Positions 4,107-9,574 of a DNA stretch of 64,000 nt are shown piece after piece (the stretch's first letter is position 1; each line of letters begins with the position of its first letter). The notes below the pieces were generated by a model. It had not been told where the DNA came from, searched no databases, and was given only the letters and a program-made list of their open reading frames with translations. Where the stretch lies: IMG/VR virus record IMGVR_UViG_3300042892_003674; one strand, written 5' to 3'. Position numbers and translations under genes: made by a program. This stretch comes from a virus (lineage: Duplodnaviria > Heunggongvirae > Uroviricota > Caudoviricetes).

Positions 4107-4897
4107 ATATAATCATATACTGTTTCAATTACCAGCTCATTCTCTTTAGTTTTTTTACTATCTGATAAAAAGTGTGTATATCCTAATATACTTGCTGCAT
4201 CATCAATATTATTTATTGATGAGAAATCAGTAATCAACTTAACATTGTAGTTAAAATAATTACATAAATTAGTAATATAAAATTGTTCAAAAATTAAAGA
4301 TGTTATCTCATATTCCATATTGTAATTATCAATATATTCAATGTATTTTAATGCTTCACTCCACCAAATATCTAATATATCTAATCTATTAAATCCAATT
4401 ATACCACAATTATAAGACTCTTTAAAATTCCAATTTATATATTTTGAATCAAGTCTAAAGTTATTTATAAGATTAATGTAGGGACGTATATGACCTAATC
4501 CTACATCTTTCATAATTTCACTTTGCTGAAAACAAGCATCACTGTTTAGTAAATCTATTGGTGGTTTCTTTGACCAAATTACGTCATTATCTATATGAAT
4601 AAATGGTTCCTTCTGTATCTTACAGGCATATATTTTACCAATGGCCCAATGTTTAGAATCAATATTACTAAGAGCAGTTTCTAATTCAATAGATACTGAT
4701 GTAAATGGTAGTTTATACTTATCAATTAAAAGCTCTTTTCCCTTAATATCTGTTACCAATTCAACCTTAGAAAAATAATTTTTACTCATTTCTAATGAAA
4801 TTGATAAACATTTTATGAATATTTCCTCTCTATTAAATCCAAGTAAAAAGTCATCCATTGGTTTTGTCCAAAGTGAATATATTGCCTTATCTATCAT
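4088..4897 (-). CDS. Hypothetical protein.
   Basis: 269-aa ORF whose TAA lies inside the terminator hairpin. Contains a HIDNDV (DxD-like) motif, but no firm family assignment is possible. Confidence 0.7.
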   Translation of the reverse strand: MIDKAIYSLWTKPMDDFLLGFNREEIFIKCLSISLEMSKNYFSKVELVTDIKGKELLIDKYKLPFTSVSIELETALSNIDSKHWAIGKIYACKIQKEPFIHIDNDVIWSKKPPIDLLNSDACFQQSEIMKDVGLGHIRPYINLINNFRLDSKYINWNFKESYNCGIIGFNRLDILDIWWSEALKYIEYIDNYNMEYEITSLIFEQFYITNLCNYFNYNVKLITDFSSINNIDDAASILGYTHFLSDSKKTKENELVIETVYDYIIKKRL

Positions 4898-4928
4898 TTA
4901 ATTTATATTAAATAACTTAAATAAGTTG

Positions 4929-5014
4929 AAGAGAGCAAGGGAATCGAACCCTACCCAGTTTCCCGGGCGTCTCGCTTAGCAGGCGGACCCTATCACCATC
5001 AAGGTTTACTCTCC
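4929..5014 (-). tRNA. tRNA-Ser(GCU), class II with a long variable arm. The anticodon stem has one mismatch.
   Basis: Acceptor GGAGAGU/GCUCUCU, T-arm GGGTTCGATTCCC, variable stem CCCGG-GAAA-CTGGG, anticodon loop CTGCTAA, length 86 nt. Confidence 0.6.
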
Positions 5015-5020
5015 ATATTG

Positions 5021-5106
5021 CAGTGAACAAGGGAATCGAACCCTATGCGATTCAACGCACGTGCTGCTTTCCAGGCAGACCCAATCACCATCAAGGTTTA
5101 CTCACT
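5021..5106 (-). tRNA. tRNA-Ser(GGA), class II.
   Basis: Anticodon stem CTGC/GCAG with loop CTGGAAA, T-arm GGGTTCGATTCCC, D-arm identical to the previous tRNA, 86 nt. Confidence 0.7.
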
Positions 5107-5112
5107 ATGTTG

Positions 5113-5199
5113 CGGAGAAAACAGGGCTCGAACCTGCACACCAGTTTCCCGATACCGGTTTTCAAGACCGGGGCGATACCAATTACGCTTTACTTCTCC
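5113..5199 (-). tRNA. tRNA-Ser(UGA), class II.
   Basis: Acceptor GGAGAAG/TTTCTCC, anticodon stem CCGGT/ACCGG with loop CTTGAAA, T-arm CAGGTTCGAGCCCTG, 87 nt. Confidence 0.75.
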
Positions 5200-5210
5200 A
5201 AGTAATTTAG

Positions 5211-5294
5211 AAGAGAGTGTGGGACTCGAACCCACAAAGGTACTACCCTTTACTAGTTTTCAAAACTAGGCCTTCATCCAGCCAGTTACTCTCC
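5211..5294 (-). tRNA. tRNA-Ser(UGA), second copy, class II.
   Basis: Acceptor GGAGAGT/ACTCTCT, anticodon stem CTAGT/ACTAG with loop TTTGAAA, variable stem AAAGG-GTAGTA-CCTTT, T-arm TGGGTTCGAGTCCCA, 84 nt. Confidence 0.75.
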
Positions 5295-5303
5295 ATATAT
5301 TTG

Positions 5304-5375
5304 TGATTCCAGAGGGAATCGAACCCCCACCTGATCGTTCGTAGCGACCTATCCTATCCGTTAAACGATGGAACC
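5304..5375 (-). tRNA. tRNA-Arg(ACG).
   Basis: Acceptor GGTTCCA/TGGAATC, anticodon stem GGTCG/CGATC with loop CTACGAA, T-arm GGGGGTTCGATTCCCTC, 72 nt. Confidence 0.8.
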
Positions 5376-5379
5376 AATT

Positions 5380-5416
5380 AAAAACAAAAAACCCACAAAC
5401 TTTGAGGTTTGTGGGT
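5380..5416 (-). terminator. Intrinsic terminator, candidate attenuator hairpin, directly upstream of tRNA-Arg.
   Basis: On the minus strand: ACCCACAAAC-CUCAAAG-UUUGUGGGU followed by UUUUUUGUUUUU. It sits 19 nt after the stop of leader ORF A and ends 2-3 nt before the 5' end of the tRNA. Confidence 0.6.
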
Positions 5417-5436
5417 ATACTAATTTTTTATATCAA

Positions 5437-5514
5437 TTATGAATACAACAGAACCTCCCTCAAATTACTTGAGCGACTAGACGAACTTGACGATGTTGTG
5501 ATAATTGTTTTCAT
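5437..5514 (-). CDS. Candidate Ser-rich leader peptide A, 25 aa: MKTIITTSSSSSSRSSNLREVLLYS.
   Basis: ATG lies 6 nt after the TTTTAATATATAAATAAT motif. Nine Ser codons (TCG, TCA, AGT, TCT) plus CGC, matching the anticodons of the five tRNAs immediately downstream: Ser GCU/GGA/UGA x2 and Arg ACG. The ORF is below the 60-aa cutoff of the ORF track. Confidence 0.45.
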   Translation of the reverse strand: MKTIITTSSSSSSRSSNLREVLLYS

Positions 5515-5535
5515 ATTATTTATATATTAAAATTT
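5515..5535 (-). promoter_or_regulatory. Conserved TTTTAATATATA upstream motif, candidate phage promoter for leader A and tRNA block 1.
   Basis: Minus strand reads GAATAAAATTTTAATATATAAATAATATG. The same motif recurs upstream of more than 12 start codons in this window. Confidence 0.45.
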
Positions 5536-5558
5536 TATTCTTTGTTTTTATTTATTTG

Positions 5559-5689
5559 ATAGAAAGGTGGGACTCGAACCCACAACCACGGCTTTAACAG
5601 AGCGAAGTAACTTATTTCATTGCTACTAATTTCTTAGAGAAAGACTGACTAAGTATGATTACGTGCTCTACCAATTGAGCTACTTTCTA
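5559..5689 (-). tRNA. tRNA-like gene with a ~57-nt structured insertion between the D-arm and the anticodon stem. It may be an intron-containing tRNA-Asn(GUU) or a tRNA pseudogene.
   Basis: Perfect acceptor UAGAAAG/CUUUCUA, canonical D-arm GCTC-AATTGGTA-GAGC, T-arm GTGGGTTCGAGTCCCAC, anticodon-like loop CTGTTAA (GUU) with a 4/5-bp stem. Total length is 131 nt against an expected ~75. The inserted segment can fold as GUAA...UUAC enclosing CTTAG...CTAAG. Confidence 0.45.
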
Positions 5690-5693
5690 TTTG

Positions 5694-5764
5694 CACGTCG
5701 ACTAGGACTCGAACCTAGAACATTGGTTTTGGAGACCAAGATGATGCCATTTCACTATCGACGT
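5694..5764 (-). tRNA. tRNA-Trp(CCA).
   Basis: Acceptor ACGTCGA/TCGACGT, D-arm GTGA-AATGGCA-TCAT, anticodon stem TTGGT/ACCAA with loop CTCCAAA, T-arm CTAGGTTCGAGTCCTAG, 71 nt. Confidence 0.8.
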
Positions 5765-5771
5765 GTTTTGG

Positions 5772-5844
5772 GTTGACAGACGGGACTTGAACCCGCAATC
5801 CCTTGGTTCACAACCAAGTGCTTTAACCATTAAGCTACCATCAA
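5772..5844 (-). tRNA. tRNA-His(GUG), with no encoded G-1.
   Basis: D-arm GCTT-AATGGTTA-AAGC, anticodon stem CTTGG/CCAAG with loop TTGTGAA, T-arm GCGGGTTCAAGTCCCGT, 73 nt. Confidence 0.7.
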
Positions 5845-5846
5845 AG

Positions 5847-5921
5847 TGACCCCGGTGGGGATCGAACCCACGACCCCTCGATTAAAAGTCGAGTGCTCTA
5901 AACCAGCTGAGCTACGAAGTC
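5847..5921 (-). tRNA. tRNA-Lys(UUU).
   Basis: D-arm GCTC-AGCTGGTTTA-GAGC, anticodon stem CTCGA/TCGAG with loop CTTTTAA, T-arm GTGGGTTCGATCCCCAC, 75 nt. Confidence 0.85.
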
Positions 5922-5930
5922 ATTATTTTG

Positions 5931-6002
5931 TGCGGACTGACGGAATCGAACCGACCTCTTAGGGACTTCACTCCTACGCTAAACCGTCTCAGCTAAATCC
6001 GC
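5931..6002 (-). tRNA. tRNA, probably Phe(GAA). The structure is irregular: A-C at positions 31-39, G32/G37, and a U-U in the T-stem.
   Basis: Acceptor GCGGATT/AGTCCGC, anticodon arm TAGG-A-GTGAAGT-C-CCTA, T-arm GTCGGTTCGATTCCGTC, 72 nt. Confidence 0.5.
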
Positions 6003-6008
6003 AATTTG

Positions 6009-6081
6009 GGTGAAAGACGGGGATCGAACCCGCGACAACTTGAACCACAATCAAGCACTCTACCACTGAGCTACAATCACC
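6009..6081 (-). tRNA. tRNA-His(GUG) with an encoded G-1 pairing C73.
   Basis: Extra 5' G before acceptor GTGATTG/CTTTCAC (two U-U pairs), D-arm GCTC-AGTGGTA-GAGT, anticodon stem CTTGA/TCAAG with loop TTGTGGT, T-arm GCGGGTTCGATCCCCGT. Confidence 0.7.
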
Positions 6082-6088
6082 ATGTTTG

Positions 6089-6161
6089 TGGACCCTCAGG
6101 GAATCGAGCCCTGTCCTTTGGATTTTCAGTCCAACGTACGCACCAGCTATACGAAAGGTCC
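6089..6161 (-). tRNA. tRNA-Phe(GAA).
   Basis: Acceptor GGACCTT/AGGGTCC, anticodon stem TTGGA/TCCAA with loop CTGAAAA, T-arm CAGGGCTCGATTCCCTG, 73 nt. Confidence 0.75.
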
Positions 6162-6171
6162 ATTATATTTG

Positions 6172-6245
6172 CACAAGCCAAGGGAGTCGAACCCTTTCCA
6201 TCCGAGGTTTTGGAGACCTGGTGCATACCATTATGCTGACCTGTA
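6172..6245 (-). tRNA. tRNA with a CCA anticodon (Trp-like, second copy). The D-arm and the 26-27 junction are irregular.
   Basis: Acceptor ACAGGTC/GGCTTGT, D-stem GCAT/ATGC, anticodon stem (C)AGGT/ACCT(C) with loop CTCCAAA, T-arm AAGGGTTCGACTCCCTT. Confidence 0.5.
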
Positions 6246-6250
6246 TTTTG

Positions 6251-6323
6251 TGATCCCGGTGGGACTCGAACCCACAACCTTCTGATTAAAAGTCAGAAGC
6301 TCCACCAATTGAGCTACGAAATC
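6251..6323 (-). tRNA. tRNA-Lys(UUU), second copy.
   Basis: Acceptor GATTTCG/CGGGATC, D-arm GCTC-AATTGGTG-GAGC, anticodon stem TCTGA/TCAGA with loop CTTTTAA, T-arm GTGGGTTCGAGTCCCAC, 73 nt. Confidence 0.85.
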
Positions 6324-6329
6324 ATTTTG

Positions 6330-6402
6330 TTCCCCCGCCGGGAGTCGAACCCGGCCCCATAAGTTAAAAGCCTATTGCCTACCGCCAGTTTGCTACGAGG
6401 GA
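6330..6402 (-). tRNA. tRNA with a UUU-type anticodon loop (third Lys-like). The D-arm is poor.
   Basis: Acceptor TCCCTCG/CGGGGGA, anticodon stem ATAGG/CTTAT with loop CTTTTAA, T-arm CCGGGTTCGACTCCCGG, 73 nt. Confidence 0.55.
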
Positions 6403-6404
6403 TT

Positions 6405-6445
6405 ATAAAATAAAAAAACCCAAACTTAATTTTAAGTTCGGGTTT
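6405..6445 (-). terminator. Intrinsic terminator, candidate attenuator hairpin, immediately upstream of tRNA block 2.
   Basis: On the minus strand: CCCGAACUU-AAAAUU-AAGUUUGGG, perfect only as RNA thanks to a G-U pair, followed by UUUUUUUAUUUUAU that ends 3 nt before the 5' end of the tRNA at 6402. Confidence 0.6.
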
Positions 6446-6474
6446 ACGTTTATGCTTTATTCTCTTTTATGACA

Positions 6475-6585
6475 TTATCCTACAATAACATCTTCTTTTG
6501 AGAACGACATACTCATACATCCGAACTTGTGGCTAAACCACTTGAACGACTTACTAAAGCTTGTATGTTTGAAATTTGTTCTCAT
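6475..6585 (-). CDS. Candidate F/K/H/W-rich leader peptide B, 36 aa: MRTNFKHTSFSKSFKWFSHKFGCMSMSFSKEDVIVG.
   Basis: ATG lies 6 nt after TTTTAATATATATAAC. Composition is 6 Phe, 5 Lys, 2 His, 1 Trp and 7 Ser in 36 codons, matching the Lys/Phe/His/Trp tRNAs downstream. Codons AAG-UUC-GG are complementary to the 5' arm of the terminator. Confidence 0.5.
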   Translation of the reverse strand: MRTNFKHTSFSKSFKWFSHKFGCMSMSFSKEDVIVG

Positions 6586-6606
6586 TGTTATATATATTAA
6601 AAGTTT
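6586..6606 (-). promoter_or_regulatory. Conserved TTTTAATATATA upstream motif, candidate promoter for leader B and tRNA block 2.
   Basis: Minus strand reads AATAAACTTTTAATATATATAACAATG. Paralogous to the 5515..5535 copy. Confidence 0.45.
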
Positions 6607-6675
6607 ATTCTCTCTTTTTGTTTTTTTGTTATTTTTATAGTACAAAAGTAATAAAAGTTTACTTATCTACCTAAT

Positions 6676-6912
6676 TTATTTTAATTTATTTTTAATTTTA
6701 GTTGTAATCTTCTCTAAACTTGATTTAGAATTTGTTTTTTGTTTTGGAAATCTGCCATGATTTCCCATACTATCATAGTCAGCACATTCATATGCTGAAG
6801 GTGATGGTAGTCCACTATAGTGACAAAATTCATCCTCACTAAGTATTTCCTCTTTTTTATCTTCTTGTTTCATATTTAAAACTTCTTCTTTATTTATATT
6901 ACAAAGATACAA
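6676..6912 (-). CDS. Hypothetical small protein.
   Basis: 78-aa ORF in a co-oriented gene block. Confidence 0.5.
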   Translation of the reverse strand: MYLCNINKEEVLNMKQEDKKEEILSEDEFCHYSGLPSPSAYECADYDSMGNHGRFPKQKTNSKSSLEKITTKIKNKLK

Positions 6913-7481: not shown

Positions 7482-7685
7482 ATGCCCGCCCGCTCAAAAC
7501 AGCAATTAAAGTACATTTTTGCGATGCGTCGTAAATATAAAAACAAAAAAAGTGCTCCTAAACATATGAAGTGGGTATTTAACAAAGATTGGACCCACGA
7601 TGTCAATGTAAGTGGGTTACCAACCAAAGTTAAAAGCTTTCAAACTTATGTAAGTGAGAACTACGATGCTACTACTAAAAAGTAG
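7482..7685 (+). CDS. Candidate small Lys/Arg-rich basic protein, possibly nucleic-acid binding.
   Basis: 67 aa from ATG 7482: MPARSKQQLKYIFAMRRKYKNKKSAPKHMKW... It begins with an unusually GC-rich stretch, gcccgcccgc. It sits in an otherwise non-coding gap. The competing antisense ORF 7415..7627 is hydrophobic junk. Confidence 0.3.
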   Translation: MPARSKQQLKYIFAMRRKYKNKKSAPKHMKWVFNKDWTHDVNVSGLPTKVKSFQTYVSENYDATTKK

Positions 7686-8914
7686 TTTTTCTTACCTCTC
7701 TGAACTATAATAAATTTGTTATTTATTAAATCACCATCAGTTACGATGTATATTTCTTCTCTTTTTATTTTATTTACTGCAACAGAGTTTTCTTTTAAAG
7801 CTCGTCTTGCTTCATTATTAGATTTTAAGAAGCCAGTTTTAAATAGAATGTCGGTCATTGATATACCATTCACAATCTCTTCCATTGGAACATTTGCCAT
7901 TGGTAATCCACTAAATATATCTAAAATAGTTTCATTATCAAGTGAATTTAAGTTACCATTGTTAAATAGAATGTTTGAAGCTTCTACTGCTTTGTTAAAC
8001 TCTTCTTCACCATGTACCATTATAGTCAATTCTTTGGCTAATGTTTTTTGTAATAAAAACAAATGTCTAGCTTTATTGTGTTCTTCTATTAAACCATCAA
8101 TAGTTTCTTTATCTAAAAATGTAAAGATTTTAATAAATCTTTCTGCATCTGCATCATCTGTGTTTAACCAAAATTGGAAAAACTTGTAAACAGATGTTTT
8201 ATCTTTATCTAACCATATATTCCCACCTTCTGACTTACCAAATTTTGTACCATCTGCTTTTGTTAAAAGTGGACAAGTCATAGCAAATGCTTCTCTACCT
8301 GGGAACATCTTGTGTATCAATTCTGTACCTGTTGTTATGTTACCCCATTGATCAGAACCACCCATTTGTAATAAACAGTTATGTTCTTTATTAAGGTGTA
8401 AGAAATCGTATCCTTGAATCAACTGGTATGTAAATTCAGTGAAAGACATACCTTCACCTTCGATACGGTTTTTTACAGATTGTTTTGATAACATGTAATT
8501 TACGGTAATTCTTTTACCGATGTCTCTTACAAAGTCTATGAAACTAAACTTTGACATCCAATCGTAGTTGTTTAGAACTGGTGTATCACCTAAAAATCTT
8601 GTTAAAGTATTTCTGATACCTTCGACGTTTTTATTAAGTGTTTCTTCATCTAAAAGATTTCTTTCAGATGATTTCCCAGATGGGTCACCGATCATACCAG
8701 TAGCACCACCGACAACTGCGATTGGATTATGTCCAAAGTTCTTCATATGTTTTAAAAGAATGATTGGAACTAAACTACCAATATGTAGAGAATCTGACGT
8801 TGGATCAAATCCAATATAAGCGGTGGTGGCTTCTTTTAAAAGTTGAGCCTCCGTTCCGGGTATAATATCATGTACTAACCCACGCCATTTTAATTCTTCT
8901 ACTATATTTTTCAT
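7661..8914 (-). CDS. tyrS: Tyrosyl-tRNA synthetase, bacterial type.
   Basis: GFDPTSDSLHIGSLVPI (HIGH-type motif), KFGKS (KMSKS), C-terminal S4-like domain, 417 aa. Confidence 0.9.
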   Translation of the reverse strand: MKNIVEELKWRGLVHDIIPGTEAQLLKEATTAYIGFDPTSDSLHIGSLVPIILLKHMKNFGHNPIAVVGGATGMIGDPSGKSSERNLLDEETLNKNVEGIRNTLTRFLGDTPVLNNYDWMSKFSFIDFVRDIGKRITVNYMLSKQSVKNRIEGEGMSFTEFTYQLIQGYDFLHLNKEHNCLLQMGGSDQWGNITTGTELIHKMFPGREAFAMTCPLLTKADGTKFGKSEGGNIWLDKDKTSVYKFFQFWLNTDDADAERFIKIFTFLDKETIDGLIEEHNKARHLFLLQKTLAKELTIMVHGEEEFNKAVEASNILFNNGNLNSLDNETILDIFSGLPMANVPMEEIVNGISMTDILFKTGFLKSNNEARRALKENSVAVNKIKREEIYIVTDGDLINNKFIIVQRGKKNYFLVVAS

Positions 8915-9557: not shown

Positions 9558-9574
9558 ATTTTAATATATAGTTT
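9558..9574 (+). promoter_or_regulatory. Upstream motif TTTTAATATATAGTTTATG, an exact 17-mer shared with the sequence upstream of 38240(-) and 46641(+).
   Basis: Ends at the ATG of ORF 9575. Confidence 0.5.

Follow-up and report, generated by a model that had tools for sequence, protein, structure and literature searches.

We analyzed a 64,000-nt stretch of DNA (the window, at its full length) from the Caudoviricetes virus record IMGVR_UViG_3300042892_003674 of IMG/VR, and found that its minus strand carries, directly upstream of one tRNA-Arg and four tRNA-Ser genes, a module consisting of a serine-rich leader open reading frame (ORF) followed by a terminator hairpin. Judging from the sequence and from RNA folding models, this S/R module is likely (probability about 0.75) to be a ribosome-mediated, leader-peptide transcription attenuator that controls the phage tRNA operon behind it. 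If so, the tRNA-Ser and tRNA-Arg would probably be made only when ribosomes decode the matching codons slowly. An attenuator had been proposed in a preliminary description made from the letters of the window alone, and the proposal gains support from our observation that the ORF, the terminator and the Arg and Ser tRNA genes are kept together in ~78 versions of the module, with a covarying terminator and antiterminator. The elements of the module and the tRNA genes behind it are the following.

5530-5520, minus strand: start-context or promoter-like motif TTAATATATAA, 5 nt 5' of the leader ATG
5514-5437, minus strand: leader ORF MKTIITTSSSSSSRSSNLREVLLYS with its TAA stop, by direct reading of the sequence
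5493-5467, minus strand: putative sensing run, codons 8-16, TCG TCA AGT TCG TCT AGT CGC TCA AGT (Ser x6, Arg, Ser x2)
5476-5456, minus strand: P1 hairpin UC.CUCAA / UUGAG.GA, a possible pause hairpin, in the minimum-free-energy and centroid folds
5457-5448, minus strand: predicted antiterminator 5' strand GAGGUU-C-UGU (codons 20-23), seen on folding a transcript cut short of the terminator 3' arm and supported by family covariation
5416-5391, minus strand: terminator hairpin ACCCACAAAC-CUCAAA-GUUUGUGGGU, called by the terminator scan, -14.8 kcal/mol
5412-5404, minus strand: predicted antiterminator 3' strand ACAAACCUC, overlapping 6 nt of the terminator 5' arm and 3 nt of the loop
5390-5380, minus strand: T-run TTTTTGTTTTT, ending 4 nt 5' of tRNA-Arg
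5375-5303, minus strand: tRNA-Arg(ACG), by default ARAGORN and the Rfam tRNA model (49.1 bits)
5292-5210, minus strand: tRNA-Ser(UGA), by default ARAGORN and the Rfam tRNA model
5199-5112, minus strand: second copy of tRNA-Ser(UGA), by default ARAGORN and the Rfam tRNA model
5102-5020, minus strand: tRNA-Ser(GGA), non-canonical and low-scoring, by ARAGORN at -ps80 only; sub-threshold in Rfam (32.3 bits)
5014-4928, minus strand: tRNA-Ser(GCU), non-canonical and low-scoring, by ARAGORN at -ps80 only; sub-threshold in Rfam (38.9 bits)

Direct reading of the minus strand reproduced the layout given in the preliminary description, in which a motif is followed by an ATG at 5514 and a 25-codon ORF. 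The sequence TTTTAATATATAAATAAT adjoins this ATG on its 5' side, and the codons of the ORF (ATG AAA ACA ATT ATC ACA ACA TCG TCA AGT TCG TCT AGT CGC TCA AGT AAT TTG AGG GAG GTT CTG TTG TAT TCA TAA) end in a TAA stop at 5439-5437. The nine Ser codons and single CGC (Arg) codon counted earlier were all present, with TCG used twice, TCA three times, TCT once and AGT three times. From the stop codon to the terminator hairpin we measured 20 nt, one more than the 19 nt originally reported. The hairpin itself, which had been described together with a U-tract before the first tRNA, was called by a terminator scan; it has a 10-bp stem with the DNA arms ACCCACAAAC and GTTTGTGGGT and the loop CTCAAA, and hairpin and T-run together span 5416-5380. 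Since the T-run ends only 4 nt from tRNA-Arg, there is no space for a separate promoter, and the tRNAs can therefore be reached by readthrough only. The fold z-score, -2.79, is beyond what chance would give.

The set of five tRNAs named in the preliminary description was recovered with ARAGORN and Rfam, the last two at a relaxed threshold only. For Ser(GGA) and Ser(GCU) the Rfam matches were to the tRNA-Sec model, below its threshold, and both genes have a long variable arm; in one relative (locus L008), Ser(gga) and Ser(gct) were found by default ARAGORN 3' of the same S/R module. Each codon of the sensing run is readable by at least one of the five downstream tRNAs, which bears out the earlier claim that every Ser codon class and the CGC codon would be served by the tRNAs of this block. 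Leaving out the initial Met, the leader has 24 codons, and 10 of them match one of the five tRNAs; the rate expected from the window's long ORFs is 9.2% (binomial P = 2.6e-5).

The family of S/R modules was collected with the search pattern ATGARAAC-N(25-55)-AGTCGCTC-N(65-95)-GGTTTTTT, which imposes no reading frame. A first scan pattern, ATGAAAAC...TGTATTCRTAA, had returned mostly chance matches, with real modules in 7 of 56 stretches, and was abandoned. The pattern matched 18 IMG/VR stretches and 93 stretches of metagenome contigs, and once chance matches were removed, ~78 distinct S/R modules were left, all of them from huge-phage and metagenome contigs. Among bacterial and archaeal genomes (one each of 185,579 species) there were nine pattern matches, all of them due to chance, so that these genomes yielded no module and no clue to a host or a prophage. 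The module is thus confined to phage and metagenome contigs. Wherever downstream sequence exists, a tRNA-Arg(acg) begins 4-16 nt (mostly 5-12 nt) past the matched GGTTTTTT and is followed by tRNA-Ser.

The leader was found to be conserved as a reading frame. Its peptide has the form MKT(I/T)(I/N)..TS(S/K)SSS(S)RSS(K/R)..E(V/I)(R/L)LYS, and the ATG is invariant among the ~78 versions. The offset from the ATG to AGTCGCTC is 33, 36, 39, 45 or 63 nt and is divisible by 3 in 78 of 78 versions, so that the length of the leader, whose conservation the preliminary description had left to be established, changes in frame only. Likewise, in an alignment of 59 sequences the gaps within the ORF correspond to whole codons and those within the spacer have arbitrary lengths. 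The Ser run is longer or shorter by entire codons, and its TCN and AGY codons replace one another among versions.

Alternative folding of the minus-strand leader, which had been suggested as a check, yielded a terminator and an antiterminator that are mutually exclusive. Each of 13 versions that were folded gave P1, the terminator and the antiterminator. In P1, the Arg-Ser-Ser codons pair with codons ~17-19. The antiterminator appeared when the terminator 3' arm was withheld; in relatives, codons ~19-25 pair with the whole terminator 5' arm, and the stop codon and the spacer form the loop. Most versions have 0-4 nt between the end of its 5' strand and the stop codon (range, 0-13 nt). Covariation was counted on an alignment (A1) of 59 versions. 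For the antiterminator, 85.9% of cells were paired and 7 of 10 pairs showed compensatory changes, a result reached by none of 500 shuffles, and slid controls gave at most 52%. For the terminator, 91% of cells were paired and compensatory changes occurred at 8 of 12 pairs, again with 0 of 500 shuffles reaching this result. P1 (-7.2 kcal/mol) was paired in 86% of cells across the 59 sequences and covaried weakly, with compensatory change in one of eight pairs. The leader strand and the two terminator arms had changed in a matched, three-way fashion; for example, GTT-CGA occurs with TCGAAC and GTTTGA, ATT-CGA with TCGAAT and GATTTGA, ATC-CGA with TCGGAT and ATCTGA, and CTT-GTG with CACAA and TTTGTG. 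Leaders paired better with their own terminator arm (-11.2 kcal/mol) than with arms of other clades (-8.8 kcal/mol; P < 5e-5) in a test on 22 representatives that was designed to respect relatedness.

A different antiterminator had been put forward at the outset, namely pairing of the leader segment UUUGAGG (5464-5458) with CCUCAAA (5407-5401) across the terminator loop and stem. The complementarity is real (-5.8 kcal/mol alone, an energy similar to that of its replacement), and it was the role as a family-wide antiterminator that did not hold. Other clades have a different terminator loop, which limits this pairing to the clade of the window. It also competes with P1, the conserved hairpin in which UUGAG, as the 3' strand, pairs with the CGC-UCA codons. 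Going by covariation, the family-wide antiterminator is instead the pairing GAGGUU-C-UGU:ACAAACCUC.

The effect of a ribosome on these structures was simulated by masking parts of the nascent transcript (nt 1-114). The antiterminator was predicted to form with the ribosomal A site on Ser codons 10-13. A ribosome placed on the stop codon covered the antiterminator 5' strand and left the terminator arm free, and an A site at codon 16 masked the antiterminator partly. The transcript without a ribosome folded into the antiterminator, that is, into readthrough by default.

The leader ATG shares its surroundings with larger genes of the phage. Five long ORFs of the window (557, 1530, 317, 134, and 248 aa) have, 3-5 nt before their ATG, a motif of the form T[TA]AATATATAN; so do both leader ORFs, that of the S/R module and that of a sister module, B, which lies upstream on the same strand. 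The context of the leader ATG (TTAATATATAN plus 3-5 nt) is the same as in the five long genes, and the leader ORFs therefore start like real genes of this phage. Sites of the motif, 3-5 nt before an ATG, were seen at window positions 9561, 46627, 58334, 38254, and 30988, among others. From its position, T[TA]AATATATAN is probably a phage promoter that would give leaderless or near-leaderless mRNAs. Some relatives have TAnnTTTG-like upstream motifs, which would be promoters of the Bacteroidota type and may hint at a host.

Taken as a working model, these elements would act as follows. Transcription would start on the leader ATG or a short way before it, and a ribosome would be on the 25-codon leader while RNA polymerase approaches the terminator; we infer from the arrangement that the leader is translated and that its translation is coupled to transcription. 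With ample Ser-tRNA and Arg-tRNA, the ribosome would pass the S6-R-S2 run and reach the TAA, covering codons 20-25, which include the antiterminator 5' strand; with this strand covered, the terminator would form and transcription would stop 4 nt before tRNA-Arg. If TCN, AGY or CGY codons were decoded slowly, as with a host tRNA pool that is depleted or too small, or whose tRNAs are cleaved or uncharged, the ribosome would stall at codons ~8-14. The free antiterminator strand could then capture the terminator 5' arm as it emerges, and the polymerase would read through into tRNA-Arg and then the four tRNA-Ser. The response predicted in this direction would amount to negative feedback, in which the capacity to decode these codons switches off its own synthesis. 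Candidate physiological triggers are a codon usage mismatched with that of the host, depletion of host tRNAs, and cleavage of host tRNAs. In related phages the same cassette, with other codon barcodes, stands before other tRNA operons.

Sister modules of this kind were found in the window and in relatives. Module B begins with the same motif as the S/R module and has the following parts.

6600-6416, minus strand: sister module B, with the same motif, the leader MRTNFKHTSFSKSFKWFSHKFGCMSMSFSKEDVIVG (6585-6475) and a terminator at 6445-6416 (terminator scan)
6402-5693, minus strand: the nine tRNA genes of module B, Lys Lys Trp Phe His Phe Lys His Trp (ARAGORN)

Homologs of module B occur in ~25 IMG/VR contigs. 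Its leader holds AAGTTCGG, a copy of the terminator 3' arm, which from its sequence is likely to be an antiterminator strand. Sister modules, by class, have the following leader cores and tRNA sets.

Leader core ..HKHFSKS.KWFS..: Lys, His, Phe, and Trp tRNAs behind
Leader core MRTINLNMINVNNTLNT..: Asn and Asn tRNAs behind
Leader core ..IEAIGYAYEAG.. (Ile = ATA): Tyr, Glu, Ile(UAU), Gly, and Ala tRNAs behind
Leader core ..PQIQDQDQP..: Gln, Pro, and Asp tRNAs behind (8 genes)
Leader core ..VGGQQVAQAG..: Gln, Gly, Val, and Ala tRNAs behind
Leader core MRTINLNMNLNNTLNMVNTLCIR.. (22 of the first 23 codons cognate): 14 tRNAs behind, for Asn, Arg(UCU), Ile, Leu, Thr, Cys, Met, and Val

Each class has a leader that fits the tRNA genes behind it. 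The mean fraction of cognate codons was 0.335 for a leader's own set, compared with 0.104 for the sets of other classes, and the ATA codon is used in the ..IEAIGYAYEAG.. leader exactly where a tRNA-Ile(UAU) follows. Scanning all fetched loci, without bias, for hairpins with a T-run no more than 40 nt upstream of a tRNA gave 113 unique cases. A short ORF ending 5-60 nt upstream was present in all 113, and in 109 it started with M[KRT][TAN]; at terminators away from tRNAs, by comparison, a short ORF was present in 45 of 82 and this start in 10 of 82. The M[KR]T(I/T)(I/N) N-terminus, the start motif and the style of terminator are shared among modules, which suggests from the sequences that they are paralogous cassettes with exchangeable codon barcodes. 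We lean towards a broader view as well, at a lower confidence than for the S/R module itself, in which this clade of huge phages has a modular homeostat for tRNA supply, with many tRNA operons each gated by a paralogous barcode-leader attenuator. The barcode, in the middle part of each leader, would consist of exactly those codons that the tRNAs behind it read. An operon would then come on solely in response to ribosomes stalling on its own codons, as might happen where the host pool is ill-suited to the codon usage of the phage, where host tRNAs are depleted, or where anticodon-nuclease defenses cleave them.

Hairpins of another kind were seen behind lysine-rich mini-leaders (MKTKLKYKR, MKTKRKYKR, MKSKLKYKR, METKRKR) in the relatives L001 (4700-4760, minus strand), L002 (6000-6050, minus strand), L060, L073, and L092. 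These leaders are followed by hairpins of 11-12 bp without a T-run and then by three to four tRNA-Lys genes, with the same codon-matching logic, and they may use a different or Rho-like mechanism. In L064, L072, L089, and L059, protein genes are inserted between the tRNAs of an array, where they are seen as ORF ends directly upstream of tRNAs; we suspect that they are homing-endonuclease-like. Such insertions break up the tRNA arrays and blur the definition of an operon start.

Several observations weigh against attenuation as we propose it. There is no Shine-Dalgarno sequence 5' of the leader ATG, and likewise none 5' of the long genes of the window that carry the motif. The antiterminator of the window, 9 bp and a bulge with a duplex energy of -9.7 kcal/mol, was equaled or bettered by 16% of mononucleotide shuffles; because it is weak on its own, the case rests on the family and not on the window copy. 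No clear 1:2 protector helix competing with the antiterminator was evident, since P1 overlaps the antiterminator by only 1-4 nt. Without such a helix the model predicts readthrough when the leader is untranslated, unlike in trp, and as a consequence transcripts that read through from the upstream tRNA operon would escape regulation. The idea that a module stands before every tRNA array in these phages is not supported in that form, as a strong hairpin with a T-run was present at only 115 of 224 apparent array starts in the related loci; many of the remaining starts are artifacts, caused by tRNAs that ARAGORN missed or by inserted genes. Finally, because some of the hairpins behind the Lys mini-leaders lack a T-run, at least one type of module may act differently.

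Three other explanations were weighed against attenuation. The hairpin could be a leaky constitutive terminator, or an element that sets dosage or serves processing, with a short ORF that is incidental or encodes an unrelated micropeptide and with no sensing at all. The terminator is indeed far stronger than the antiterminator (-14.8 versus about -6 to -10 kcal/mol), the antiterminator of the window is individually non-significant, and short ORFs are frequent in AT-rich DNA, as is apparent from the terminators away from tRNAs. We nevertheless regard this explanation as improbable. The composition of the leader follows the downstream tRNA set in at least eight module classes, down to the choice of codon; the frame is kept without exception and the antiterminator covaries with the terminator arm; and the M[KR]T N-terminus and the start motif go specifically with terminators placed before tRNAs. 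It is somewhat less improbable, and still unlikely, that stalling acts after transcription, on the processing by RNase P, E or III or on the stability of the polycistronic tRNA precursor, instead of on termination. The Lys mini-leaders (MKTKLKYKR and similar), with their T-run-less hairpins, would fit such a scheme, as would the fact that tRNA precursors need processing within a few nucleotides of the hairpin. It accounts poorly for the canonical GC-rich stems followed by 6-9 T in the S/R, FKHW, N, and other modules, and for a covarying antiterminator that specifically sequesters the terminator 5' arm.

A sensor of the T-box type, which would work independently of translation through pairing of leader codons with the anticodons of (uncharged) tRNAs and stabilization of the antiterminator, also predicts a match between leader codons and tRNA anticodons, and a terminator/antiterminator pair is present. 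Still, an Rfam scan of 4800-6700 found no T-box covariance-model match at E up to 10. The leaders have, moreover, the features of genes (an invariant ATG, a frame kept through insertions and deletions, a stop codon where the antiterminator strand ends, and the start context of the phage's genes), and barcodes of up to 22 consecutive cognate codons for eight amino acids fit poorly with a single specifier loop. We therefore consider direct tRNA sensing very unlikely.

Attenuation by a translated leader would place the S/R module next to several known systems. With the thrL, hisL, leuL, pheL, and trpL attenuators it shares a short ORF rich in regulatory codons, an intrinsic terminator and an overlapping antiterminator, as well as a stop codon placed such that the terminating ribosome would block the antiterminator. 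The leader N-terminus, MKTIITT, resembles the MKRISTTITTT of thrL. In the Rfam scan, full-length sub-threshold matches were obtained to Thr_leader (RF00506; 24.7 bits, threshold 55) and His_leader (RF00514; 21.7 bits, threshold 49); because these scores are far below the gathering thresholds, the module does not belong to either family. The enterobacterial attenuators control biosynthetic enzymes, whereas the S/R module would control tRNAs, is phage-borne and has no evident competing 1:2 helix. As the regulated genes are tRNAs, the molecule sensed would be the product itself. Leaders of the sister modules, unlike those of enterobacterial attenuators, can mix codons for as many as eight amino acids in one barcode.

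The pheM attenuator of the E. coli pheST operon, which encodes phenylalanyl-tRNA synthetase, has leader codons of one amino acid. It is similar in that the leader peptide controls a translation component for the same amino acid as its codons, and it differs in that the target is a synthetase gene rather than tRNA genes, in its single amino acid, and in its chromosomal location. A possible precedent at the E. coli tRNA-Phe genes was not borne out at pheV, which has only a promoter before the tRNA and neither an ORF nor a terminator. T-box riboswitches resemble the S/R module in choosing between terminator and antiterminator according to tRNA status and in following a codon-anticodon logic; they differ by binding tRNA directly, without translation, through a single specifier codon, and by regulating synthetase, biosynthesis, and transporter genes. 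The tRNA arrays of other phages (T4-like, T5-like, Herelleviridae, actinophages) are likewise clusters of phage-encoded tRNAs; in five unrelated cultured phages we found 0-1 terminator-like hairpins at 40 tRNA-array starts and no leader modules. To our knowledge, the module differs from all described attenuators in its tRNA target, the multi-amino-acid barcodes of its sister modules, the lack of an evident 1:2 helix and its presence on a phage. A search of the full-text literature, in which most subscription journals were not covered and an earlier account is thus possible, returned no account of attenuators or leader peptides before phage tRNA genes.

The window belongs to a large phage that encodes an NAD-dependent DNA ligase and an SbcC-like protein, and the database entries closest to it are two records of uncultured phages, 634,780 and 642,428 bp in length (LR745206.1 and LR756502.1). 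Just upstream of the tRNA modules lies a tyrosyl-tRNA synthetase gene (7661-8914, minus strand; Pfam tRNA-synt_1b, E = 7e-76), and in relative L002 a gene inside the tRNA region encodes a product that, by eye only, resembles a class I (TrpRS-like) synthetase. A tRNA-like gene was also observed at 5557-5692 on the minus strand, with canonical acceptor, D and T arms and an anticodon arm of normal appearance, whose loop CUGUUAA gives the anticodon GUU; some relatives have UUU or CUU instead. Between its D arm and anticodon arm there is a structured insertion of ~65-75 nt. ARAGORN, with introns allowed, read this gene as tRNA-Met(CAU) with a 51-nt intron. The element, including its insertion, is kept in ~35 related loci, usually just 5' of the S/R leader in the loci examined, and its hairpin shows compensatory changes at 19 of 35 predicted pairs. 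The insertion may be a non-canonical intron, or the element as a whole may be a tRNA-like processing or regulatory element.

Attenuation is a mechanism class that was already known; as far as we found, its target (tRNA genes), its logic and the modular barcode are new. If our reading is true, these would be, again as far as found, the first tRNA genes under ribosome-mediated attenuation and the first leaders to multiplex up to eight amino acids. Known attenuation couples amino-acid biosynthesis to the level of charged tRNA, whereas here there is apparently a direct feedback from decoding speed to tRNA synthesis. The compact cassette (~135 nt) appears re-programmable and could possibly serve in engineering as a codon-specific sensor of translation stress. 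The barcodes are, in addition, an independent, sequence-encoded readout of tRNA identity that helps to annotate non-canonical phage tRNAs missed by tRNA finders. For the phages themselves, this form of control would explain how genomes with dozens of tRNAs avoid needless tRNA synthesis, and because each leader names the codons that the phage 'worries about', the question of why phages carry tRNAs would become directly testable.

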